Assembly (NCBI RefSeq): GCF_024298765.1
Contig: NZ_CP101210.1
From: Escherichia coli
GTDB taxonomy: Bacteria > Pseudomonadota > Gammaproteobacteria > Enterobacterales > Enterobacteriaceae
DNA length: 64,000 nt
Direction: 5' to 3' (one strand)
Under the pieces are notes generated by a model. That model had not been told where the DNA came from and did no database searches. It saw only the letters and a list, made by a program, of their open reading frames with translations. Positions 21,115-34,086 of this stretch are shown one piece after another (position 1 is the first letter of the stretch; every line of letters starts with the position of its first letter). The translations under genes were made by a program, and so were the position numbers.

Positions 21115-21807
21115 CTAGTGATAACCACGCGCGGTCATAAAATCCGTAATCGCTTTTTCTGCATCAACCAGCACCTTTTCCAGTGGCTGATTGGCGTCGA
21201 TATCAACCAGTTGTGCACCGCCAAAGGTTAACTGTGGCGTTATGGCAATCTTCCTCGCCAGCGATTCCCGTTTATGGTCGGGTTTACGCGCGCAGGCAAC
21301 TTCAAGGTCAACATTGAGTTTGATGACCAGATCAGGCTTATGGCTCGCCATCCAGTGAAATGCTTTACGTTCCTGGCTTGCCAGCCATGAGACAAACCGG
21401 CCGCCTTCAACGTTAGGTGGGAACACCGTACCATCGTAAGCGCCAGGAATTTGGTCCTGAGGATAACGATCGGTTAAGACAATCAGCCCGCGACGACGAC
21501 AGGCGAGCATATGACGAAAGCGTAACAGTCGGCGGGCGACGAAAGCGGTGATCACCAGGGCCGGAACCGGACCCGGCAATTTTTTTGCCGTTTTCACTTC
21601 ATTTTTTTCAATAGTCTTGTGCAGAGACTTTCCCATCAACGGTAATTTTGTCACTGCACGACCGACATTTCCGGCCTGTTTTCCTAAATGAACTCTTTCG
21701 GCAGCACCATATTTTTCGACAACGGTAATAAGATGTTCACACACCGTTGACTTGCCTGAACCATCGCTACCAATAACGGCAATTAATGGAGGTGTTATTG
21801 ACTGCAT
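21115..21807 (-). CDS. yghT: P-loop NTPase-like protein (paralog 1 of 3)
   Basis: 230 aa; Walker [10 protein letters not shown]; shares DRYPQ and ARKPDH motifs with yghS and yghR. Confidence 0.8.
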
Positions 21808-21980: not shown

Positions 21981-22694
21981 GTGAATCAACGTAATATGTC
22001 AATAATTAATTCCACGCCAGTGCGTGTTATTGCCATTGTAGGATGTGATGGTTCAGGTAAATCGACCCTCACGGCAAGCCTGGTAAATGAACTGGCAGCA
22101 ACAATGCCAACAGAACACATTTATCTCGGGCAATCGTCCGGGCGAATTGGCGAATGGATTTCACAGCTCCCTGTTATTGGCGCACCTTTTGGGCGTTATC
22201 TGCGAAGTAAAGCGGCACATGTGCACGAAAAGCCCTCCACACCACCTGGCAATATTACTGCGCTGGTTATCTATCTGCTTTCCTGCTGGCGGGCGTACAA
22301 GTTTCGCAAAATGTTGTGTAAAAGCCAGCAAGGCTATCTGCTCATCACCGACCGCTACCCGCAGGTTGAAGTGCCGGGTTTTCGCTTTGATGGCCCGCAA
22401 TTGGCAAAAACCACGGGCGGTAACGGTTGGATAAAAATGTTAAGGCAGCGCGAGCTGAAGCTGTACCAATGGATGGCGTCTTATTTGCCCGTATTGTTGA
22501 TTCGTCTTGGCATTGATGAACAAACCGCGTTTGCGCGTAAACCTGACCACCAACTGGCGGCGTTACAGGAAAAAATCGCCGTTACGCCGCAACTGACATT
22601 TAATGGCGCAAAGATCCTTGAACTGGATGGTCGGCAACCCGCCGATGAAATTCTGCAAGCGTCACTACGCGCAATTCACGCCGCGCTTTCCTGA
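21981..22694 (+). CDS. yghS: P-loop NTPase-like protein (paralog 2 of 3)
   Basis: 237 aa from GTG (ATG alternative at 21996); Walker A GCDGSGKST. Confidence 0.8.
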   Translation: MNQRNMSIINSTPVRVIAIVGCDGSGKSTLTASLVNELAATMPTEHIYLGQSSGRIGEWISQLPVIGAPFGRYLRSKAAHVHEKPSTPPGNITALVIYLLSCWRAYKFRKMLCKSQQGYLLITDRYPQVEVPGFRFDGPQLAKTTGGNGWIKMLRQRELKLYQWMASYLPVLLIRLGIDEQTAFARKPDHQLAALQEKIAVTPQLTFNGAKILELDGRQPADEILQASLRAIHAALS

Positions 22695-22725: not shown

Positions 22726-23484
22726 ATGGACGCACTACAAACACAAACTGTTAATAGTACAACCGCGCCGCAGCCCAACTACATTCCGGGGCTGATTGCG
22801 GTGGTCGGGTGTGATGGCACCGGTAAATCCACACTGACCACCGACCTGGTGAAATCGCTGCAACAACACTGGCAAACCGAGCGGCGCTATCTGGGGCTGC
22901 TCTCGGGCGAAGACGGCGACAAAATCAAACGATTGCCGTTGGTTGGCGTCTGGCTCGAACGGCGACTGGCGGCCAAATCCTCGAAAACCCAAAGCATGAA
23001 AACCAAATCTCCAGCGCTATGGGCGGCGGTGATTATGTACTGCTTCTCGCTGCGAAGAATGGCGAATCTACGCAAGGTTCAGCGACTGGCGCAAAGTGGC
23101 GTTCTGGTGGTCAGCGATCGCTTCCCGCAGGCTGAAATTTCGGGCTTTTATTATGACGGACCGGGGATCGGCGTCGAACGTGCGACCGGGAAAATCAGCA
23201 TGTTTCTGGCGCAGCGCGAACGGCGTTTATACCAACAAATGGCGCAATACCGTCCTGAATTAATCATTCGTTTGGGGATTGATATTGATACTGCCATCTC
23301 CCGCAAGCCTGACCATGACTATGCCGAGCTGCAGGACAAAATCGGCGTCATGTCGACGATTGGCTATAACGGCACAAAAATTCTTGAGATTGATTCCAGA
23401 GCGCCCTACAGCGAAGTGCTGGAACAGGCACAGAAGGCGGTTTCTCTGGTTGCCATCGTTTCTGACCGCCGAAGTTTAACTTAA
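22726..23484 (+). CDS. yghR: P-loop NTPase-like protein (paralog 3 of 3)
   Basis: 252 aa; Walker A GCDGTGKST; DRFPQ; SRKPDH. Confidence 0.8.
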   Translation: MDALQTQTVNSTTAPQPNYIPGLIAVVGCDGTGKSTLTTDLVKSLQQHWQTERRYLGLLSGEDGDKIKRLPLVGVWLERRLAAKSSKTQSMKTKSPALWAAVIMYCFSLRRMANLRKVQRLAQSGVLVVSDRFPQAEISGFYYDGPGIGVERATGKISMFLAQRERRLYQQMAQYRPELIIRLGIDIDTAISRKPDHDYAELQDKIGVMSTIGYNGTKILEIDSRAPYSEVLEQAQKAVSLVAIVSDRRSLT

Positions 23485-23529: not shown

Positions 23530-24879
23530 TTGGCGGGTTTTAACATCAAACATTGGTTTGCAGATGGCGCGTTTCGCACCATTATTCGCAATAGCGCCTG
23601 GTTAGGCTCCAGTAATGTCGTGAGCGCTTTGCTGGGTCTGTTGGCGCTCTCGTGTGCCGGTAAAGGGATGACGCCCGCCATGTTTGGCGTACTGGTGATT
23701 GTACAATCGTACGCCAAGTCGATCAGCGATTTTATTAAGTTTCAGACATGGCAGCTGGTGGTTCAGTACGGAACACCAGCATTAACCAACAATAATCCGC
23801 AGCAATTCCGCAATGTCGTCTCATTTTCCTTCTCGCTGGATATCGTCAGCGGCGCGGTGGCGATTGTCGGCGGCATTGCCTTACTCCCTTTTCTTTCCCA
23901 TTCATTAGGTCTGGATGACCAAAGCTTTTGGCTGGCAGCGCTGTATTGCACGCTCATTCCTTCAATGGCTTCCTCCACGCCGACCGGCATTCTGCGTGCG
24001 GTAGATCGCTTCGATCTAATTGCTGTACAGCAAGCGACGAAACCTTTTCTGCGCGCAGCGGGGAGCGTCGTTGCCTGGTATTTTGACTTTGGTTTTGCGG
24101 GTTTTGTTATTGCCTGGTACGCCTCGAATCTTGTTGGCGGCACCATGTACTGGTGGTTTGCCGCACGTGAATTACGCCGCAGAAATATCCATAACGCGTT
24201 CAAATTGAATCTGTTTGAGTCTGCCCGACACATCAAAGGCGCGTGGAGTTTTGTCTGGTCAACCAACATTGCCCATTCCATCTGGTCGGCGCGTAATTCG
24301 TGCAGCACAGTGTTGGTGGGGATCGTGTTAGGACCCGCTGCCGCCGGGTTATTTAAAATCGCCATGACATTCTTCGACGCCGCCGGAACGCCAGCGGGTT
24401 TACTGGGCAAAAGTTTTTACCCAGAGGTGATGCGTTTAGATCCGCGTACCACCAGACCGTGGTTGTTAGGCGTGAAGTCAGGTTTACTGGCGGGCGGAAT
24501 CGGTATTCTGGTGGCGCTCGCGGTGTTGATTGTCGGCAAGCCGCTCATTTCGCTGGTGTTTGGCGTTAAGTATCTCGAAGCGTATGACCTGATTCAGGTG
24601 ATGCTGGGCGCAATTGTGATCTCGATGCTGGGCTTCCCTCAGGAGTCATTGCTATTGATGGCGGGAAAACAGCGCGCTTTTCTCGTGGCGCAAACCATCG
24701 CCTCAATCGGCTACATCGTATTGCTGTTCATGTTCTGTCATCTGTTTGGCGTGCTGGGAGCAGCGTTTGCTTATTTCGGTGGTCAATGTCTGGATGTGGT
24801 GCTTTCGCTAATTCCGACCTTAAAGGCATTTTTTCAGCGCCATTCCTTGCTTTATAACGCAGCCGGAGAGAAATCCTGA
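23530..24879 (+). CDS. yghQ: MOP/Wzx-like multi-pass membrane flippase-family protein (start uncertain)
   Basis: Long hydrophobic ORF; first in-frame ATG at 23668; frame open upstream to TTG at 23530. Confidence 0.65.
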   Translation: MAGFNIKHWFADGAFRTIIRNSAWLGSSNVVSALLGLLALSCAGKGMTPAMFGVLVIVQSYAKSISDFIKFQTWQLVVQYGTPALTNNNPQQFRNVVSFSFSLDIVSGAVAIVGGIALLPFLSHSLGLDDQSFWLAALYCTLIPSMASSTPTGILRAVDRFDLIAVQQATKPFLRAAGSVVAWYFDFGFAGFVIAWYASNLVGGTMYWWFAARELRRRNIHNAFKLNLFESARHIKGAWSFVWSTNIAHSIWSARNSCSTVLVGIVLGPAAAGLFKIAMTFFDAAGTPAGLLGKSFYPEVMRLDPRTTRPWLLGVKSGLLAGGIGILVALAVLIVGKPLISLVFGVKYLEAYDLIQVMLGAIVISMLGFPQESLLLMAGKQRAFLVAQTIASIGYIVLLFMFCHLFGVLGAAFAYFGGQCLDVVLSLIPTLKAFFQRHSLLYNAAGEKS

Positions 24880-25703
24880 TGATGAGAAAATATTTCCCGC
24901 TAGAGGCGAGCGAGCGTCTATTTGTTGCGATTGAAGAAGATGATGTCGTTGATGCACAGGTCAGTTTGCCGCCGACTATCGCACTAAGTTGTACCACCGA
25001 AATCATCCATGATAATTACGCGTTATGCCTGCAATTCTGGCTCAATGGCGTCAATCGCCAGGAGTTACTGCGTTTAATATGCAAACAGGCCAAAGGCGAT
25101 GAGCTGACTGCTGATGAGCGCAAACAATTTAAATACATGCGAGCGCGCTACAAGCACCTGCGTTTTGCGCAACGGCTGTATTTAAAGAAGCATCAGGCCG
25201 GATTTTTATTCGGCAAAACGACCGTTTTTTTGGGGCGTTTTCAGGACGGCTTTCGTAACGGTAAGAAAAATATTGTGTCGTATTACGGCAACCTGTTACG
25301 GGTTTATTTAAGCTCTCCGGTCTGGTCGTTGGTGAACTATTCATTACGCCATAGCCAGTTAGAAAGCGTAAGCGGTTTTATTGCCTATCGGCAAAAGCAA
25401 ATGCATACCCTGAAAGAGATAATTGCCAAACCGCGACTAACCGGCAGGGAATTTCATGATGTGCGAAAAATCATCAGCCAGCAGGTTTCTTATTACGACA
25501 CCCTAAGATCGCTTGATCCTGAAAATAAAGAAGCGTTACAGATTTCCCGCTTCCTCGCCGCCATTAATGGCCTGATGGGGGATAAACACGACGACATGGT
25601 GGCGGATGATATGGAAAACCGCCAGTCGTATGATGCACCGATGGCGCTGGATAGCGATATTCGCCAGCGCTTAGAACTGCTGATTTCGCGTTTTCCGCTA
25701 TAA
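24879..25703 (+). CDS. hypothetical cytoplasmic protein, 274 aa (island gene)
   Basis: ATG overlaps yghQ stop (TGATG); GGAGAG RBS at 24865-24870; no domain recognised. Confidence 0.6.
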   Translation: MMRKYFPLEASERLFVAIEEDDVVDAQVSLPPTIALSCTTEIIHDNYALCLQFWLNGVNRQELLRLICKQAKGDELTADERKQFKYMRARYKHLRFAQRLYLKKHQAGFLFGKTTVFLGRFQDGFRNGKKNIVSYYGNLLRVYLSSPVWSLVNYSLRHSQLESVSGFIAYRQKQMHTLKEIIAKPRLTGREFHDVRKIISQQVSYYDTLRSLDPENKEALQISRFLAAINGLMGDKHDDMVADDMENRQSYDAPMALDSDIRQRLELLISRFPL

Positions 25704-25711
25704 CCGGAGCA

Positions 25712-26275
25712 ATGATGTCATCTCGTTTGATTATTGCGCTGATTATCATGCTCTTAGCCCCGGGTGTGCAGGCACACAATTTCGTCACTGGCAAAACGGT
25801 TACCCCCGTTTATATCCAGGAAGGCGGCGAGCTGCTTCGGAATAGCGACGACGAAATTCACTACCAAAAGTGGAACAGCACCCAATTGGCGGGAAAAGTT
25901 CGCATTATTCAGTATATCGCCGGGCGTAAGTCGGCGAAGAAAAAGAACTCACTGTTAATTAAAGCAGTTGAAGCGGCAAACTTTCCGCAGGATCGTTTTC
26001 AGCCCACCACCATTGTGAACACTGATGATGCCATCTTTGGTACCGGCTATTTTGTCGTTGGCAAAATCGAAAAAAATAAACGCCGCTATCCATGGGCGCA
26101 ATTCGTTATTGACGGCAATGGACAGGGACGCGTTGCCTGGCACTTGCAGGAGCAGAGTTCAACCATTCTGGTGCTGAATAAAACCGGGCAAATTCAGTGG
26201 GCAAAGGACGGCAGCCTGACGCCGGAAGAGGTAGATCATGTCATTGCGCTGGCGCAGAAGCTGATCAATGAATAA
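25712..26275 (+). CDS. YtfJ-family secreted/periplasmic protein paralog
   Basis: 187 aa; signal peptide MMSSRLIIALIIMLLAPGVQA; strong resemblance to E. coli YtfJ as recalled (KVRxxQHIAGR, TTIVNTDDAI, VQWAKDGxLTPEEV). Confidence 0.65.
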   Translation: MMSSRLIIALIIMLLAPGVQAHNFVTGKTVTPVYIQEGGELLRNSDDEIHYQKWNSTQLAGKVRIIQYIAGRKSAKKKNSLLIKAVEAANFPQDRFQPTTIVNTDDAIFGTGYFVVGKIEKNKRRYPWAQFVIDGNGQGRVAWHLQEQSSTILVLNKTGQIQWAKDGSLTPEEVDHVIALAQKLINE

Positions 26276-26304: not shown

Positions 26305-27375
26305 ATGAAGCTGGTTGAACACTACATCATGCGTGGTACGCGCCGTCTGGTGCTGATTATCGTCGGTTTTCTGATCTTTATTTTCGCCAGCTACTCCGCA
26401 CAGCGTTATCTGACCGAAGCGGCAAATGGGACATTAGCTCTTGATGTTGTGCTGGATATCGTTTTCTACAAAGTGCTGATTGCACTGGAGATGTTGTTAC
26501 CTGTTGGACTGTATGTGTCAGTTGGCGTGACGCTAGGGCAGATGTATACCGACTCGGAAATTACCGCTATCTCTGCGGCGGGGGGCAGTCCGGGACGCTT
26601 GTACAAAGCCGTTCTTTATCTGGCGATACCGCTAAGTATTTTTGTCACCCTTCTGTCGATGTATGGTCGTCCGTGGGCTTATGCGCAGATTTATCAACTG
26701 GAGCAACAGTCACAGTCGGAGCTGGATGTTCGCCAGTTGCGGGCAAAGAAATTTAACACTAACGATAACGGACGAATGATCCTTTCGCAGACGGTTGATC
26801 AGGATAATAATCGCCTGACTGATGCGCTGATTTATACTTCTACTGCTAATCGAACCCGCATTTTCCGCGCCCGTTCGGTTGATGTGGTTGACCCATCACC
26901 TGAGAAACCGACCGTTATGTTGCATAACGGGACCGCCTATCTTCTCGATCATCAGGGGCGTGACGACAACGAACAGATCTACCGTAATCTGCAATTACAT
27001 CTGAATCCGCTGGATCAAAGCCCTAACGTCAAACGCAAAGCAAAATCGGTCACGGAGCTGGCGCGCTCCGCCTTTCCTGCCGATCATGCCGAACTGCAAT
27101 GGCGACAAAGCCGTGGCCTGACAGCATTGTTGATGGCGCTGCTGGCCATTTCATTAAGTCGGGTAAAACCGCGGCAAGGGCGATTTTCAACGTTATTGCC
27201 ACTGACGTTGCTGTTTGTTGCCATTTTTTATGGCGGCGACGTCTGCCGTACGCTGGTGGCTAACGGCGCGATTCCCCTCATTCCTGGTTTGTGGTTAGTA
27301 CCCGGACTCATGCTAATGGGCCTGCTGATGTTGGTCGCACGCGACTTCTCTTTGCTGCAGAAATTTTCCCGATGA
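26305..27375 (+). CDS. LptF-like permease (YjgP/YjgQ family) paralog
   Basis: 356 aa; 6-TM pattern with large periplasmic loop; YTDSEIT and KPRQGRF motifs resembling LptF. Confidence 0.7.
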   Translation: MKLVEHYIMRGTRRLVLIIVGFLIFIFASYSAQRYLTEAANGTLALDVVLDIVFYKVLIALEMLLPVGLYVSVGVTLGQMYTDSEITAISAAGGSPGRLYKAVLYLAIPLSIFVTLLSMYGRPWAYAQIYQLEQQSQSELDVRQLRAKKFNTNDNGRMILSQTVDQDNNRLTDALIYTSTANRTRIFRARSVDVVDPSPEKPTVMLHNGTAYLLDHQGRDDNEQIYRNLQLHLNPLDQSPNVKRKAKSVTELARSAFPADHAELQWRQSRGLTALLMALLAISLSRVKPRQGRFSTLLPLTLLFVAIFYGGDVCRTLVANGAIPLIPGLWLVPGLMLMGLLMLVARDFSLLQKFSR

Positions 27376-28451
27376 ATGTTTTCAGTCGCTATTTAATCCG
27401 TCATCTCTTTCTCGGTTTTGCCGCCGCCGCAGGGCTATTGCTGCCGCTTTTTACCACCTTCAACCTGATTAACGAACTGGATGATGTCAGCCCGGGTGGT
27501 TATCGCTGGACTCAGGCGGTGCTGGTGGTGCTGATGACCTTACCGCGCACACTGGTCGAACTTTCGCCGTTTATCGCCTTATTGGGAGGGATTGTCGGCC
27601 TGGGGCAGTTATCGAAAAACAGTGAGCTTACCGCCATTCGCAGCACGGGGTTTTCTATCTTCCGTATTGCACTGGTGGCGCTGGTTGCCGGGATATTGTG
27701 GACTGTTTCATTAGGCGCGATAGATGAGTGGGTGGCGTCGCCATTGCAGCAACAGGCGCTGCAAATCAAATCGACTGCCACTGCGTTGGGGGAGGACGAT
27801 GACATTACCGGCAATATGCTGTGGGCCAGGCGTGGTAATGAATTTGTGACGGTGAAATCGCTGAACGAGCAGGGCCAGCCGGTGGACGTGGAGATATTTC
27901 ATTACCGCGATGATCTCTCGCTCGAATCCTACATTTATGCGCGCAGTGCTACCATTGAAGACGACAAAACGTGGATCCTGCATGGTGTGAATCATAAAAA
28001 ATGGCTGAATGGCAAAGAAACGCAGGAAACATCTGATAATCTTCCCTGGCAATCGGCCTTCACCAGTATGAATCTTGAAGAGTTATCGATGCCGGGAAAT
28101 ACTTTTTCTGTCCGTCAACTTAATCATTACATCCATTATTTGCAGGAAACCGGGCAACCCAGCAGCGAATACCGCCTTGCACTGTGGGAAAAACTGGGAC
28201 AACCCATCTTGACCCTGGCGATGATTTTGCTGGCTGTGCCGTTTACCTTTAGCGCCCCGCGTTCGCCTGGGATGGGTAGCCGTCTCGCTGTAGGCGTCAT
28301 CGTTGGCTTACTCACCTGGATCAGCTATCAAATCATGGTCAATCTGGGATTGTTATTTGCGTTGAGCGCACCTGTTACCGCGCTCGGTTTACCGGTAGCG
28401 TTTGTGCTGGTGGCGTTGAGCCTGGTGTATTGGTATGACAGACAACATTAA
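27372..28451 (+). CDS. LptG-like permease (YjgP/YjgQ family) paralog
   Basis: ATG at 27372 overlaps upstream stop (ATGA); MNVFSRYLIRHLF N-terminus typical of LptF/G family; 359 aa. Confidence 0.7.
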   Translation: MNVFSRYLIRHLFLGFAAAAGLLLPLFTTFNLINELDDVSPGGYRWTQAVLVVLMTLPRTLVELSPFIALLGGIVGLGQLSKNSELTAIRSTGFSIFRIALVALVAGILWTVSLGAIDEWVASPLQQQALQIKSTATALGEDDDITGNMLWARRGNEFVTVKSLNEQGQPVDVEIFHYRDDLSLESYIYARSATIEDDKTWILHGVNHKKWLNGKETQETSDNLPWQSAFTSMNLEELSMPGNTFSVRQLNHYIHYLQETGQPSSEYRLALWEKLGQPILTLAMILLAVPFTFSAPRSPGMGSRLAVGVIVGLLTWISYQIMVNLGLLFALSAPVTALGLPVAFVLVALSLVYWYDRQH

Positions 28452-28485: not shown

Positions 28486-29658
28486 TTACTGCTTCAGAGT
28501 AGCAAATGCCTGAATGATGGCATCGATTTGCTCACGACTGTGGGCAGCGTTTACGCTACAGCGCAGCAGCGTGATGCCTGCAGGCGCGGCAGGTGGCAGG
28601 ATAAGATTCACATAAACGCCCAGCGAAATAAGCTCGCGCCAGATGCGTAAACCTTCCTCTTTCGAACCGATTATTACTGGCACTACCGGGCTAATATGTG
28701 AACTTAACTCATAACCCAGTTTTTGCAGACCGTCATACAGATGGTTGGCGTTATCCATCAGTTTTTGCCGCAGCTCTGGTTGTGTGGAAATGGTTCTTAA
28801 CGACGAGCGCACGGTCGCAATGCAGGACGGAGAAGGAGAGGCGGTAAAAATATACGGGCGGCTGCCGTAGCGCAGCACTTCCATCGCTTCTGAACCCACG
28901 GCAAAACCACCAATGGAAGCCAAACTTTTACTGAAGGTGCCGACGATAATATCCACGTCGTCTTCAACGCCAACGGCTTCAACCAGTCCGCGGCCTGTTG
29001 CGCCTAACACGCCAAACGAATGTGCTTCATCGACAATCAAATAACCACCGAGACGACGTTTGATATCAACAATTTCTGCCAGCGGCGCAACGTCACCGAG
29101 CATACTGTAGATGCCTTCAACGATAATAATCGCCTCTTTCGCCCGTTCACCGAGGCGGACCATGCGCCGTTCCAGATCGTTGACGTCATTATGGCGGAAA
29201 CGAATAATCTCTGCGCCGCCGAGAGAACAGGCGTCATAAATACTGGCGTGGCTGTCGGCATCCAGTAACACCACGGCGTTATGGTCGGCAAGTGCGCTGA
29301 TGACACCTAAATTAGCGGTATAACCGGTTGAAAAAACGATAGCGGTAGGGCGATTGAAAAACTCGGCAATCTCTTTCTCTAACGCCAGATGCGGCGCATA
29401 ACTGCCGTTTGCCATACGAGAACCGGTGGTGCCAGTGCCTTGGGCCGCTAACGCTGCCTGACCTTCGCGGATAGCATCATGATTAAAGGTTAAACCGAGA
29501 TAATTATTGGTCCCGGCCAGAATCACTTTTTTATTGCCGATCCGGCCTTCGGTGGCGGAATACACTTCATCAATACAGGTGCCAAATGGTGTTAACCCGT
29601 TGTCACTAAATTGCAGGCGCTCGCCAGCAAGGCGCGCATATTTATCGTATAGCCCCAT
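28486..29658 (-). CDS. alpha-oxoamine synthase, serine palmitoyltransferase-like (PLP-dependent)
   Basis: 390 aa; DEAHSFG and GTFSKSLAS motifs (Lys244 codon at 28927-28929) typical of SPT/KBL/AONS family. Confidence 0.75.
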   Translation of the reverse strand: MGLYDKYARLAGERLQFSDNGLTPFGTCIDEVYSATEGRIGNKKVILAGTNNYLGLTFNHDAIREGQAALAAQGTGTTGSRMANGSYAPHLALEKEIAEFFNRPTAIVFSTGYTANLGVISALADHNAVVLLDADSHASIYDACSLGGAEIIRFRHNDVNDLERRMVRLGERAKEAIIIVEGIYSMLGDVAPLAEIVDIKRRLGGYLIVDEAHSFGVLGATGRGLVEAVGVEDDVDIIVGTFSKSLASIGGFAVGSEAMEVLRYGSRPYIFTASPSPSCIATVRSSLRTISTQPELRQKLMDNANHLYDGLQKLGYELSSHISPVVPVIIGSKEEGLRIWRELISLGVYVNLILPPAAPAGITLLRCSVNAAHSREQIDAIIQAFATLKQ

Positions 29659-29906
29659 TATTTATTCTCCAGCCATGGAAGTAGAGTTTCCATTAATTGC
29701 GCAGGGGTTTTGACATCCAGCAGAATATTAATAGGAATGGAAATATCGAATCTGTCTTCCAGCATCATTAAGAGATCCATCACTTTGATCGACTCCAGGC
29801 CAAGATCGTTGACGAGATCGCTGTCGGGCTTAATTTCCACACCGTTTTCGACCAAATCCTGTAAACAGGAAAGGATGTAATCCATTACTATTTCACGATT
29901 TACCAT
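29658..29906 (-). CDS. dedicated acyl carrier protein
   Basis: 82 aa; DLGLESIKVMDLLMMLEDRF helix-2 region with candidate phosphopantetheine Ser; stop overlaps AOS start (TAATG). Confidence 0.65.
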   Translation of the reverse strand: MVNREIVMDYILSCLQDLVENGVEIKPDSDLVNDLGLESIKVMDLLMMLEDRFDISIPINILLDVKTPAQLMETLLPWLENK

Positions 29907-29937: not shown

Positions 29938-30852
29938 TCAAAATAGCCCGTTGCGTAATGCGTGTTCCAGGCTAATCCCGGGAAACCAATTAATATCTTC
30001 AGAAATACGGTTATTATTTGCCGACCAGTCGGCGTGGGTTAATTCACGAATTTTCGAGCGGGTCAGCATAGGTTCTTTACCTGCCAGGCGACTCAACGCA
30101 GTACTGATATCCGCAAGGCAGGTGAGTAGCGGCAGAGGAATGCCAACCATCCGCACAGAACCACAACGGGCTTCGGCGGCAAGCTGTCGTACGCGTTGCC
30201 AGTCATAGCCGCCAGCGACGCCATCGCATAATTCATAGGTTTGCGTCTGTACAGTTTCGGCGTTTAACCACTGACCCACTGCTTGCGCAAAATCGGTGAC
30301 GTGCAGGAAAGAGAGTTGTGTATCTGGCGCACCAAGTCGTGGCAGCAGGCCGCGCAGCATCCAGTCAAACAGCGGTTTTAACTCTTTATCGCCGGGACCA
30401 TACACGGCTGTCGGGCGAAAAATGCCCAGCGTAATTTCGTCAGCCATTGCGATCAGTCGTTGTTCGGCGACGTGTTTGGAATTTGCGTACCAGGAGAGTT
30501 CGGGATGGCGCGCCGCCAGCGAAGAGATAAACAGAAAACGTTGGCAAAAGCCGCTCTCTTTTGCCGCTTGCATCAGGCGCAGGCTGCCGTCAACGTTACA
30601 GCGGGTAAAAATCTCTTCTTTGTGTCCGCGCACTTGTCCGGCGCAATGGACCACCGCGCTGGCTCCGGCAACCAGTTCGCTAAGCGAATGTGTATCTTCC
30701 AGCGAACCGCGCACCCAGATGAGATTATCATTGACGTGAGCGCGGGCAGTACGCGTCAATGTGCGAACGTGAAAGCCGCGGGCGAGCAGGTTATCGATAA
30801 TATATTTACCGATAAACCCGGTAGCGCCCGTCACCGCGACAGTTTGATTCAT
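29938..30852 (-). CDS. NAD(P)-dependent epimerase/dehydratase-fold reductase
   Basis: ATG at 30852 (MNQTVAVTGATGFIGKYI), 304 aa; YANSK catalytic dyad; track ORF has an N-terminal extension overlapping the upstream gene. Confidence 0.7.
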   Translation of the reverse strand: MNQTVAVTGATGFIGKYIIDNLLARGFHVRTLTRTARAHVNDNLIWVRGSLEDTHSLSELVAGASAVVHCAGQVRGHKEEIFTRCNVDGSLRLMQAAKESGFCQRFLFISSLAARHPELSWYANSKHVAEQRLIAMADEITLGIFRPTAVYGPGDKELKPLFDWMLRGLLPRLGAPDTQLSFLHVTDFAQAVGQWLNAETVQTQTYELCDGVAGGYDWQRVRQLAAEARCGSVRMVGIPLPLLTCLADISTALSRLAGKEPMLTRSKIRELTHADWSANNNRISEDINWFPGISLEHALRNGLF

Positions 30853-32573
30853 GCCAGGGATTCCTGCACATGAAGGCTTGCAGCATAAGCCTTCTGATAA
30901 CGTTTTTTCGCTTCCGCACGGGCAGGCTTGCCGGAGGACGTTCGGGGAATACTGTGGGGCGGCAACAGATCGATAGCCGCGGTCACGCCAAATTCGCTTT
31001 GGATCCGTGCTACCAGTGCGTGGATAAGCTGCCCACGACGTTCTTCGTCGCTGATCCGACACTGGATCTGCAAAATGATTTTTTCCTGGGCGGTAACAAA
31101 AGCAATCGCATCGCCAGAATGAATTTCCGGTTCCTGTTCCGCAATGTATTCAATATCCTGCGGCCAGATATTACGGCCACGAATAATAATCAGATCTTTA
31201 ATGCGTCCGGTGACATACAGATAACCGTCCAGCAGATAACCGAGGTCGCCGGTGTCTAACCAGCCCGTCGCGGCAATCTCGTCTTGCGAAACCTGGTCGC
31301 CAAAGTACCCGCTCATCAGGCTGGGGCCGGAGATGCAAATATGGCCTACCACACGTTCCGCGACAGGTATATCTGCTTCATTGCGGATTTCAATGCCATG
31401 TTCCGGCAACGCTTTACCGCAGTTGACGAAAGTCGATACGGCGCGTGTTTCAGCACCCGGCGCGACGGCTTTACCCTGGTATTCGAGGATGTCGCGATCC
31501 ACTTCGTTAACCACAACCCCGCAGGCTTCATCAGAGAAGCTGACAGCCAGCGCATTTTCTGCCAGTCCGTAGCACGGCATGAAAGTTTTATCGTCAAAGT
31601 TAACCTGACGAAAACATTCAGCGAATTGATGGAGTTGTTCTGCGGAGATCGGTTCTGCTCCAATACCAGCGACGCGCCAGCAGGAAAGATCCAGTTCAGC
31701 GAGATCTTTTTCATTCACGCGGCGCTGGCACAATTCATAGCCAAACGGCGGTGCAACGGAAACGGTGCCGCGATTTTTACTGATCAATTTAAGCCATTGC
31801 AGAGGACGCATGGCAAAATCCTGAGTGCGCAAATAATCTACTGAAAGCTGCGTGGCGACGGGGGTCAGGAGAAAGCCGACCAGTCCCATATCATGGTAGA
31901 AAGGCAGCCAGGAGACGCAGCGGTCGCCAGGGCGTAATTTAATGCCATCGTGGCTTATAGCACGTAGATTAGCCATCACTTCGTGATGGGTGATAATGAC
32001 GCCACGGGGAAAACGGGTGCTGCCGGAGGTGTACTGGAGGTAGGCGATATCGTTCGGAACTGGACGCTGGAGCGCAACATCGGCTTCCGGTAATGCCTTA
32101 AACCAGGCGTGGCTTAAAACATGTAATTCGGGGTTGTTGTTATGCGTCGCGGCATTGACCAGCGGTAACCACTCATCACCAGTGATAATGGCTGCGGGCT
32201 GGCAACTTGCCAGTAAACCCTGCAGTTTGGCGCTCCAGGAATCCCGCTGACCGACGCCCATTGGAATCGCCAACGGGACGGCGACTAAGCCGGCACACTG
32301 GCAGGAAAAAAAAGCCTCTACAAACCCGCTACTCGTTTCGGCAATCAGCGCCACGCGATCGCCTTTTTTCAGGTTCAGCGATAACAACCGCTTCGCACCA
32401 GCTTCGGCACGCGCTTTTAACGTCTGATATTCCAGTTGATCTTCAAGTTGGCAACGTCTGTCATAAAAATTCATTCCGGCGCTACTCAGAGCGGCGTAGT
32501 CCAAAGCATCAACCAGCGTTGGAAAATCGGCATAGCGCATAGGTAGGGAATGCGTAAAGATTTTATTAGACAT
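30849..32573 (-). CDS. fatty acyl-AMP ligase / acyl-ACP synthetase-like adenylating enzyme
   Basis: About 574 aa from ATG at 32573; YTSGSTRFPRG core motif; GRIKDLIIIRGRNIWPQDIE; stop overlaps next start. Confidence 0.7.
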   Translation of the reverse strand: MSNKIFTHSLPMRYADFPTLVDALDYAALSSAGMNFYDRRCQLEDQLEYQTLKARAEAGAKRLLSLNLKKGDRVALIAETSSGFVEAFFSCQCAGLVAVPLAIPMGVGQRDSWSAKLQGLLASCQPAAIITGDEWLPLVNAATHNNNPELHVLSHAWFKALPEADVALQRPVPNDIAYLQYTSGSTRFPRGVIITHHEVMANLRAISHDGIKLRPGDRCVSWLPFYHDMGLVGFLLTPVATQLSVDYLRTQDFAMRPLQWLKLISKNRGTVSVAPPFGYELCQRRVNEKDLAELDLSCWRVAGIGAEPISAEQLHQFAECFRQVNFDDKTFMPCYGLAENALAVSFSDEACGVVVNEVDRDILEYQGKAVAPGAETRAVSTFVNCGKALPEHGIEIRNEADIPVAERVVGHICISGPSLMSGYFGDQVSQDEIAATGWLDTGDLGYLLDGYLYVTGRIKDLIIIRGRNIWPQDIEYIAEQEPEIHSGDAIAFVTAQEKIILQIQCRISDEERRGQLIHALVARIQSEFGVTAAIDLLPPHSIPRTSSGKPARAEAKKRYQKAYAASLHVQESLA

Positions 32574-32600
32574 ATACACCACGAAAAAATTGGATATCAA

Positions 32601-32943
32601 AAATAAAATGACAATAATGCGGTGGATTATATAGGCATAAAAGATAAATGAGATAGTATTTTCATCAGTGTGAAAATGAACATTGATTTAAATAATGAGT
32701 TTGAGTTTTTTTGTTTTTATTGTGAATGATATTTAATTTATGAATATATTAAGAAGAAGCCTTGTCCGGTCGCCTTAAATCGACAAAAGGCATTGTGGCG
32801 CTTCTGTGTAGTCTCTGACCTTATCGTAATCATTAATAATACTATTTATTCGTCGTTTGTATTCATTGGGTTGATTGTTAAGGTGCCGTTCGTTGCTGTT
32901 GCAACCTGTTTGTCACCGTTAATTATTTGTTACCCACAGAACT
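32601..32943. promoter_or_regulatory. AT-rich divergent intergenic region (promoters for lipid operon and yghO)
   Basis: About 340 bp markedly AT-rich with A/T tracts, flanked by divergent start codons. Confidence 0.5.
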
Positions 32944-34086
32944 ATGGAATGCGATCTGCTGATGATTAAAATTGAAAAAGTAATTAATAAAAATGACCTT
33001 AAGGCATTTATCGCTTTTCCGTCATCACTTTATCCCGACGATCCAAACTGGATACCCCCTTTATTCATTGAACGCAACGAGCATTTGTCTGCGAAAAATC
33101 CGGGGACGGACCATATCATCTGGCAGGCGTGGGTGGCAAAAAAAGCGGGGCAGATAGTTGGGCGTATTACCGCGCAAATCGATACCTTGCACCGCGAGCG
33201 TTACGGCAAAGATACCGGTCATTTCGGCATGATTGACGCCATTGATGATCCGCAGGTTTTTGCCGCGTTGTTTGGCGCAGCGGAAGCGTGGTTGAAGTCA
33301 CAAGGTGCAAGTAAGATCAGCGGTCCTTTCAGCCTGAATATCAATCAGGAAAGCGGATTACTGATTGAAGGTTTCGATACACCACCCAGTGCGATGATGC
33401 CACACGGTAAACCGTGGTATGCCGCGCATATTGAACAACTGGGTTATCACAAAGGCATTGATTTACTGGCGTGGTGGATGCAGCGAACCGATCTCACTTT
33501 CTCTCCGGCGCTAAAAAAACTGATGGATCAGGTGCGCAAAAAAGTGACCATTCGCTGCATCAATCGCCAGCGGTTTGCCGAAGAGATACAGATCCTGCGT
33601 GAGATTTTCAATTCTGGCTGGCAGCACAACTGGGGATTTGTGCCGTTTACCGAACATGAATTCGCGACCATGGGCGATCAACTTAAATATCTGGTGCCGG
33701 ACGATATGATCTACATCGCTGAGATTGATTCTGCACCCTGCGCGTTTATTGTTGGCTTGCCGAACATCAACGAGGCGATTGCCGATCTGAACGGATCGCT
33801 CTTTCCCTTCGGCTGGGCAAAATTGCTGTGGCGTTTGAAAGTCAGCGGTGTGCGAACTGCGCGAGTGCCGCTGATGGGCGTGCGGGACGAGTATCAGTTC
33901 AGCCGCATCGGCCCGGTAATTGCGCTGTTATTGATTGAAGCCTTACGCGATCCGTTTGCCCGTCGGAAGATCGATGCGCTGGAGATGTCATGGATCCTCG
34001 AAACCAATACAGGCATGAATAACATGCTGGAACGCATTGGGGCGGAGCCGTACAAGCGTTACCGATTGTATGAAAAGCAGATTTGA
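32944..34086 (+). CDS. yghO: GNAT-fold acyltransferase-like protein (uninterrupted reading frame)
   Basis: 380-aa ORF from ATG 32944 (alternative ATG 32962); divergent from lipid operon. Confidence 0.65.
   Translation: MECDLLMIKIEKVINKNDLKAFIAFPSSLYPDDPNWIPPLFIERNEHLSAKNPGTDHIIWQAWVAKKAGQIVGRITAQIDTLHRERYGKDTGHFGMIDAIDDPQVFAALFGAAEAWLKSQGASKISGPFSLNINQESGLLIEGFDTPPSAMMPHGKPWYAAHIEQLGYHKGIDLLAWWMQRTDLTFSPALKKLMDQVRKKVTIRCINRQRFAEEIQILREIFNSGWQHNWGFVPFTEHEFATMGDQLKYLVPDDMIYIAEIDSAPCAFIVGLPNINEAIADLNGSLFPFGWAKLLWRLKVSGVRTARVPLMGVRDEYQFSRIGPVIALLLIEALRDPFARRKIDALEMSWILETNTGMNNMLERIGAEPYKRYRLYEKQI

Follow-up and report, generated by a model that had tools for sequence, protein, structure and literature searches.

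YghO of Escherichia coli, encoded divergently from a sphingolipid operon, is predicted to be a bacterial ceramide synthase of the bCerS type

The window analyzed in this work is a stretch of 64,000 nucleotides of E. coli DNA in which the gene of interest, yghO, lies between an operon for lipid synthesis and the gene glcC, the latter being downstream of yghO and convergent with it (Table 1). The listing of open reading frames in the window contains yghO as an uninterrupted frame of 380 codons that opens with an ATG. The earlier note was therefore right to describe a continuous reading frame, and also right in placing it divergent from the lipid operon, which is read from the minus strand across an intergenic region of 370 bp. 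The DNA of the gene is 100% identical to that of E. coli strain 104, whose annotation calls it 'protein YghO', and the GC content gives no sign of a recent foreign origin. In other genera yghO starts at the equivalent of Met7 (position 32962 here), which gives a protein of 374 aa, and this start is preceded by a conserved TAAGG Shine-Dalgarno sequence and, outside Escherichia, often by an in-frame stop just 5' of it. Because the homologues elsewhere begin at this position, the six additional N-terminal codons are specific to Escherichia. A change from TAAGG to TATGG in E. coli (32944-32962) accounts for the additional upstream ATG and also weakens the Shine-Dalgarno sequence.

Table 1. Genes and features of the yghO locus, with positions in the 64,000-nucleotide window
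Feature	Position	Strand	Remarks
yghT	21115-21807	-	P-loop 'dTMP kinase-like'
yghS	21981-22694	+	P-loop 'dTMP kinase-like'
yghR	22726-23484	+	P-loop 'dTMP kinase-like'
yghQ-like MOP flippase	23530-24879	+	Co-travels with the cluster in Enterobacterales
274-aa protein	24879-25703	+	No Pfam or NCBIfam match; conserved inside the cluster across Enterobacterales
YtfJ-family protein	25712-26275	+	Signal-peptide-like N-terminus; conserved inside the cluster across Enterobacterales
LptF2/LptG2 paralogues, candidate sphingolipid extractor	26305-27375 and 27372-28451	+	Pass the NCBIfam LptF and LptG models
spt, serine palmitoyltransferase	28486-29658	-	NF047599 equivalog, 598.6 bits against a cut-off of 500
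acpR, dedicated acyl carrier protein	29658-29906	-	
epi, CerR-like NAD(P)-dependent reductase	29938-30852	-	Annotated as NAD-dependent epimerase/dehydratase
aasR, fatty acyl-AMP ligase / specialised acyl-ACP synthetase	30849-32573	-	NF006624, 861 bits against a cut-off of 600; ECD_02851 orthologue (PMC9386255)
Divergent intergenic region aasR/yghO	32574-32943	.	370 bp, AT-rich, ~41% GC; presumed shared control region, lost in K-12
yghO, predicted bCerS-type ceramide synthase	32944-34086	+	380 aa from the first ATG; the Met7 start at 32962 gives 374 aa
N-terminal GNAT-like half of YghO, degenerate	32962-33501	+	Residues 1-180 (Met7 numbering); lacks the beta4-alpha3 pyrophosphate-binding loop
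C-terminal GNAT half of YghO	33544-34083	+	Residues 195-374; PDB-profile GNAT matches at 301-380, conservation map

Several of the neighboring genes have been characterized by others: E. coli AcpR carries 4'-phosphopantetheine, E. coli Spt forms in vivo a product that migrates like 3-oxosphinganine, and the reductase ECD_02852 has 34% identity to CC_1164 (E=7e-38; PMC9386255). The reductase encoded in the window opens directly with the Rossmann motif MNQTVAVTGATGFIG, with no signal peptide seen and no room for one, unlike the Caulobacter CerR, which is reported to be periplasmic, so that an order of steps deduced from cellular compartments may not carry over to E. coli. The second LptF/LptG pair scores above the NCBIfam equivalog cut-offs, which is why PGAP calls the two genes plain lptF and lptG; they are probably sphingolipid transporters (LptF2/G2) misnamed as housekeeping genes, a connection for which there is genetic support in Caulobacter in a preprint that also draws the locus of E. 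coli UTI89 (10.64898/2026.04.12.717747). The three paralogues YghR, YghS and YghT are encoded together with the spt/yghO cluster in Serratia, Mangrovibacter, Erwinia, Rosenbergiella and Cedecea, weaker homologues adjoin YghO homologues in Pseudomonas bohemica, Methylotenera and one betaproteobacterium, and the three proteins may be head-group enzymes. We considered them as equivalents of the Caulobacter ceramide kinase CpgB and rejected the idea, as CpgB has an LCB5/DAG-kinase domain and the YghR/S/T proteins are P-loop dTMP-kinase-like. A scan for promoters and terminators in the intergenic region between aasR and yghO returned 3 sites against 3.0 expected, which is the level of chance, and the inverted repeats in it are weak and AT-rich.

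YghO is a soluble protein of ~43 kDa, and its predicted structure has a mixed alpha/beta core fold and consists of two GNAT domains fused to each other, which together cover the whole chain at pLDDT >90 and leave no helix-turn-helix domain. YghO has no transmembrane segment (the maximum Kyte-Doolittle 19-residue mean is 1.36), and neither this nor its fold agrees with the multi-pass membrane TLC domain of the Lag1/CerS proteins. The earlier note had spoken of a GNAT-like acyltransferase character and had looked to profile searches for the signature. Taken literally, that check went against it: the single sequence of YghO had no match in Pfam even at E<=10, PF00583 and its relatives included, none in NCBIfam, and only chance-level matches when compared with the PDB by phmmer. 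The GNAT character stands nonetheless, because of the predicted structure and of weak Pfam matches among relatives, PF00583 being found in 6 of 76 diverse family members at E<=0.001 and in 25 at E<=0.1. In addition, a profile of the YghO family gave weak GNAT matches in the PDB (best E=0.007), the best ones aligning to profile positions 301-380 and to the last ~70 residues.

An exhaustive search returned 6479 cluster representatives of the YghO family at E<=0.001, nearly all of them single proteins of 370-400 aa, and Foldseek retrieved the family from AFDB at TM 0.95-0.99. A few members are fusions: P0121 (784 aa) has two YghO-like stretches, and P0131 (630 aa) and P0191 (940 aa) have additional N- or C-terminal regions of ~250-560 residues. 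Neither Pfam nor NCBIfam has a model of its own for bCerS, and the public labels of the family are inconsistent, ranging over 'DNA-binding transcriptional regulator', 'DNA-binding protein', 'dATP pyrophosphohydrolase', 'virulence-associated protein VagC' and 'N-acetyltransferase'. We consider the label 'dATP pyrophosphohydrolase' an annotation artefact. The older annotation in some UniProt and NCBI entries would have YghO bind DNA and regulate transcription of the divergent operon, and a divergent gene arrangement is indeed typical of regulators; with two GNAT domains filling the chain and no DNA-binding family found in the Pfam or NCBIfam searches, we give this reading practically no credence and consider the regulator label an artefact as well.

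The conservation within the family is concentrated in the C-terminal half, at R301, G306, Q312...G317, E341, W344, N349, K365 and Y367, and a Trp/Lys-rich helix conserved specifically in this family spans G284-S295 (GWAKLLWRLKVS). The stretch V307-R-D-E-Y-Q312-F-S-R-I-G317 keeps the GNAT motif A (Q/R-x-x-G-x-G/A after beta4) only in part, as a variant in which the Q and the last G are conserved across the family and the middle G is not, and its loop is ~4 residues longer than that in 3tt2. The C-terminal half is likely to be the acyl-thioester-binding and catalytic domain, and the degenerate N-terminal half is likely to form part of the pocket for the lipid acceptor. When the two halves were compared by HH, they matched only marginally (E=0.003, probability 11%), and the internal duplication is therefore backed by structure and not by sequence.

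To examine the genomic neighborhood of yghO in other organisms, we scanned 100,044 species representatives with a 12-sequence query alignment and examined the best 80 loci, which are mainly from gamma- and betaproteobacteria and do not include Caulobacter. Among these 80, aasR is divergent and adjacent in 38 of the 61 assessable loci, and all four operon genes (spt, acpR, the cerR-like reductase and aasR) are likewise present in 38 of 61. The arrangement of the window, with yghO divergent from aasR-epi-acpR-spt, recurs in Serratia liquefaciens and Pluralibacter gergoviae, and the other flank differs (dgkA and usp, respectively). In Nitrosomonas and many other proteobacterial loci an LptF/LptG-like pair directly follows the YghO homologue instead, and the Pseudomonas loci are linked in the same manner. 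Taken together, 57 of the 58 loci among the best 80 that could be assessed on both sides have a gene of the spt operon or an LptF/LptG-like gene beside the YghO homologue, which places YghO by synteny in the bCerS family, the direct divergence of yghO from spt, acpR, the cerR-like reductase and aasR in the window being an instance of the same association. The sole exception is a second copy in Shimwellia that sits in an unrelated context. This yghO paralogue (Shimwellia pseudoproteus L021, 10001-11152; 74% identical) is preceded by hisS, bamB and der and followed by an enterochelin-esterase-like gene and one for a fused MsbA-like ABC exporter; sphingolipid genes are absent from its surroundings, and the genome contains the full cluster as well (L008). 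One source names a member of the YghO family 'Hypothetical protein associated with Serine palmitoyltransferase'.

This linkage bears on the reading of YghO as a short-chain acetyltransferase that has a small molecule or a protein as its target, for which the lipid operon would be an incidental neighbor. The closest solved structures found by structure comparison are acetyltransferases of sugars or thiols (GlmA, MshD), and the databases apply the label 'N-acetyltransferase'; the same comparison also brings up long-chain acyl and aminoacyl transferases, namely N-myristoyltransferase (14.3) and FemX (14.7). The 57 of 58 loci linked to spt or LptF2/G2 belong to gamma-, beta- and deltaproteobacterial lineages, and the Caulobacter orthologue is a long-chain N-acyltransferase. 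Furthermore, when 25 K-12 GNATs including YghO were over-expressed, eight of them (plus YfiQ) gave acetylated bands and YghO, with no band of lysine acetylation, was not among these (PMC6199490), a result obtained with the K-12 allele, whose N-terminus is chimeric. We therefore hold the short-chain reading to be very improbable.

The connection with Caulobacter comes through the published allele of E. coli BL21(DE3). The YghO of the window is identical to ECD_02850 at 378 of 380 positions, and Padilla-Gómez et al. 2022 (PMC9386255 Table S2) reported that ECD_02850 shares 44% identity with CC_1154 at E=1e-107, with 98% of its length covered, so that the proposed homology of YghO and CC_1154 is taken from the published table and a chain of 99% identity through ECD_02850. 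CC_1154 (AAK23138.1) is the same gene as CCNA_01212 and encodes bCerS, which others have shown to be needed for ceramide formation and to N-acylate 3-oxosphinganine or sphinganine (PMC11324152 and its supplement; PMC9393093). The Caulobacter enzyme is cytoplasmic and associated peripherally with the membrane (PMC11087976), and the lack of transmembrane segments in YghO matches this location. Padilla-Gómez et al. named ECD_02850 the likely N-acyltransferase, and in BL21(DE3) expressing Spt, AcpR and AasR they saw ceramide-like spots on TLC, formed, in their words, 'possibly by intrinsic enzymes' (PMC9386255). The suggestion in the earlier note that yghO fits the N-acylating, ceramide-synthase-like step is thus supported both by the synteny and by the published identity of the BL21 allele, and we predict, with good confidence, that YghO is the E. 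coli orthologue of bCerS (CC_1154/CCNA_01212). Our search of the literature found TLC co-migration as the only support for ceramide in E. coli, with no rigorous identification, and no enzymatic or genetic test of YghO itself.

A variant of this prediction is that YghO is the N-acyltransferase of the cluster, with a product other than a standard ceramide, such as an aminolipid acylated on a 1-deoxy or other non-serine long-chain base or on an amino head group. The enterobacterial cluster does contain yghR/S/T, the 274-aa protein and the YtfJ-family protein, which are undescribed for the Caulobacter locus, no cpgABC-type head-group genes were seen within the window, and the literature has the same set of enzymes giving 1-deoxyceramides with alanine as the substrate. 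On the other hand, Spt passes the curated equivalog for serine palmitoyltransferase, its product in vivo migrated as mentioned above, and the full-length identity to bCerS favors the same reaction. On balance we think a different aminolipid improbable and keep to the prediction of a ceramide synthase.

In the pathway that we propose, AasR would load a fatty acid onto the dedicated carrier AcpR, and Spt would condense the acyl-AcpR with serine to give 3-oxosphinganine. YghO would then acylate the C2 amine of 3-oxosphinganine or of sphinganine with a second long chain taken from an acyl-thioester; in Caulobacter the acyl donor of bCerS is acyl-CoA. The CerR-like reductase would reduce the 3-keto group, either before or after the acylation by YghO, to yield dihydroceramide, and the candidate proteins for export of the lipid are the MOP flippase and the LptF2/G2 paralogues. 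Of the two GNAT halves of YghO, the C-terminal one is probably where the acyl donor binds and the transfer is catalysed, and the degenerate N-terminal one probably contributes to the acceptor pocket, in a manner comparable to MshD and GlmA, which are tandem GNATs; the conserved amphipathic helix may keep YghO at the membrane. The fold, the synteny, the purifying selection and the lack of transmembrane segments are results of this analysis, and the activities of E. coli AcpR and Spt and of Caulobacter bCerS are results of others, whereas we infer the substrates and the catalytic residues of YghO and the order of the steps.

The state of the gene differs among E. coli strains. In a K-12-type genome (one K-12 derivative was examined) IS5 stands in place of a stretch that runs from the middle of yghQ through codon 13 of yghO, and this IS5-associated deletion of ~8 kb took the operon, the yghO promoter and the first 13 codons, so that both the native promoter and the native N-terminus are gone in K-12. 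RefSeq calls a 378-aa CDS there, with a start derived from IS5 and native sequence only from residue 14, and gives it no pseudogene flag. The earlier note had described yghO as only a pseudogene in K-12, and this is partly right, and right in substance: K-12 has lost the whole lipid operon along with the promoter and N-terminus of yghO, but the annotated gene is kept as an unflagged coding sequence. The intact state is the norm in the species, the yghO region being present in 4550 of 5426 complete E. coli genomes. The adjacent operon is found at >=80% coverage in 4066 of the same 5426, which leaves about a quarter of the genomes without an intact copy. The cluster has been a repeated target of insertion sequences, with IS5 found in K-12, IS1 interrupting yghO of strain 23CRST031 and ISKpn26 interrupting the spt operon of APEC 102026. 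Comparisons of yghO within E. coli and with other genera gave a dN/dS of 0.04-0.07, and the gene is accordingly under strong purifying selection.

These numbers weigh on both sides of another possibility, namely that YghO is biochemically competent and the cluster is silent in E. coli, with no physiological role under known conditions. The papers that we found report no sphingolipids from the lipidome of E. coli, the control region between aasR and yghO is AT-rich, the insertion sequences have struck repeatedly, and an intact operon is missing from about a quarter of the genomes. Against this, a dN/dS this low, also within E. coli, together with the retention of the operon in ~75% of the genomes points to selection for function somewhere in the life cycle. 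We regard a silent cluster as unlikely, although less so than any of the alternatives discussed above.

The assignment of yghO as a ceramide-forming enzyme has been in print since 2022 (PMC9386255) and the locus has been published too. A broader reading, which we offer tentatively and consider possible though somewhat less likely than not, is that a ceramide-based envelope lipid, undetected to date, is made by the majority of natural E. coli and by many other Enterobacterales (Serratia, Pluralibacter, Erwinia, Hafnia, Citrobacter), with YghO as the ceramide synthase, a dedicated LptF2/G2 route for export and a head group specific to the Enterobacterales, possibly added by means of YghR/S/T. 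Such a lipid would have been overlooked because K-12 lost the locus to IS5. Sphingolipids have roles in outer-membrane integrity, in sensitivity to polymyxin and phage and in host signalling. If the ceramide synthase prediction is true, a long-standing y-gene of E. coli gains a function and E. coli outside the K-12 lineage has the full capacity for sphingolipids. The value that remains is experimental, E. coli B and pathogenic strains being easy hosts for the biochemistry of bCerS and for the order of acylation and reduction.

Among known systems, the closest is bCerS of Caulobacter, which is said to be the 'Aca' of Olea-Ozuna et al. 2021 and reportedly appears in Stankeviciute et al. 2022 as well. 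It has in common with YghO the family, a length of ~375-390 aa, solubility and the linkage to spt, acpR, a cerR-like reductase, aasR and LptF2/G2 paralogues. The arrangement differs, as E. coli has the five ceramide genes within ~5.6 kb with yghO directly divergent, whereas in Caulobacter bcerS adjoins lptG2/lptF2 and is several genes away from spt, and the accessory genes are yghR/S/T and those for the YtfJ and 274-aa proteins in E. coli and cpgABC in Caulobacter. The tandem-repeat GNATs MAB_4324 (7q3a), GlmA (5kf1), clavulanate ORF14 (2wpw) and MshD (1ozp) have only 13-14% sequence identity to YghO; they transfer acetyl groups to soluble sugars or thiols, whereas YghO presumably transfers long acyl chains to a lipid acceptor, and YghO differs from them by its longer beta4-alpha3 loop and by the conserved Trp/Lys-rich helix at residues 284-295. 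The eukaryotic ceramide synthases (Lag1/CerS, TLC domain) perform the same step that is predicted for YghO, the N-acylation of a sphingoid base. They are multi-pass ER membrane proteins, in contrast to the soluble GNAT architecture predicted for YghO, and since the two folds are unrelated the function would be convergent; unlike the eukaryotic enzymes, the bacterial one may act on the 3-keto base before it is reduced.
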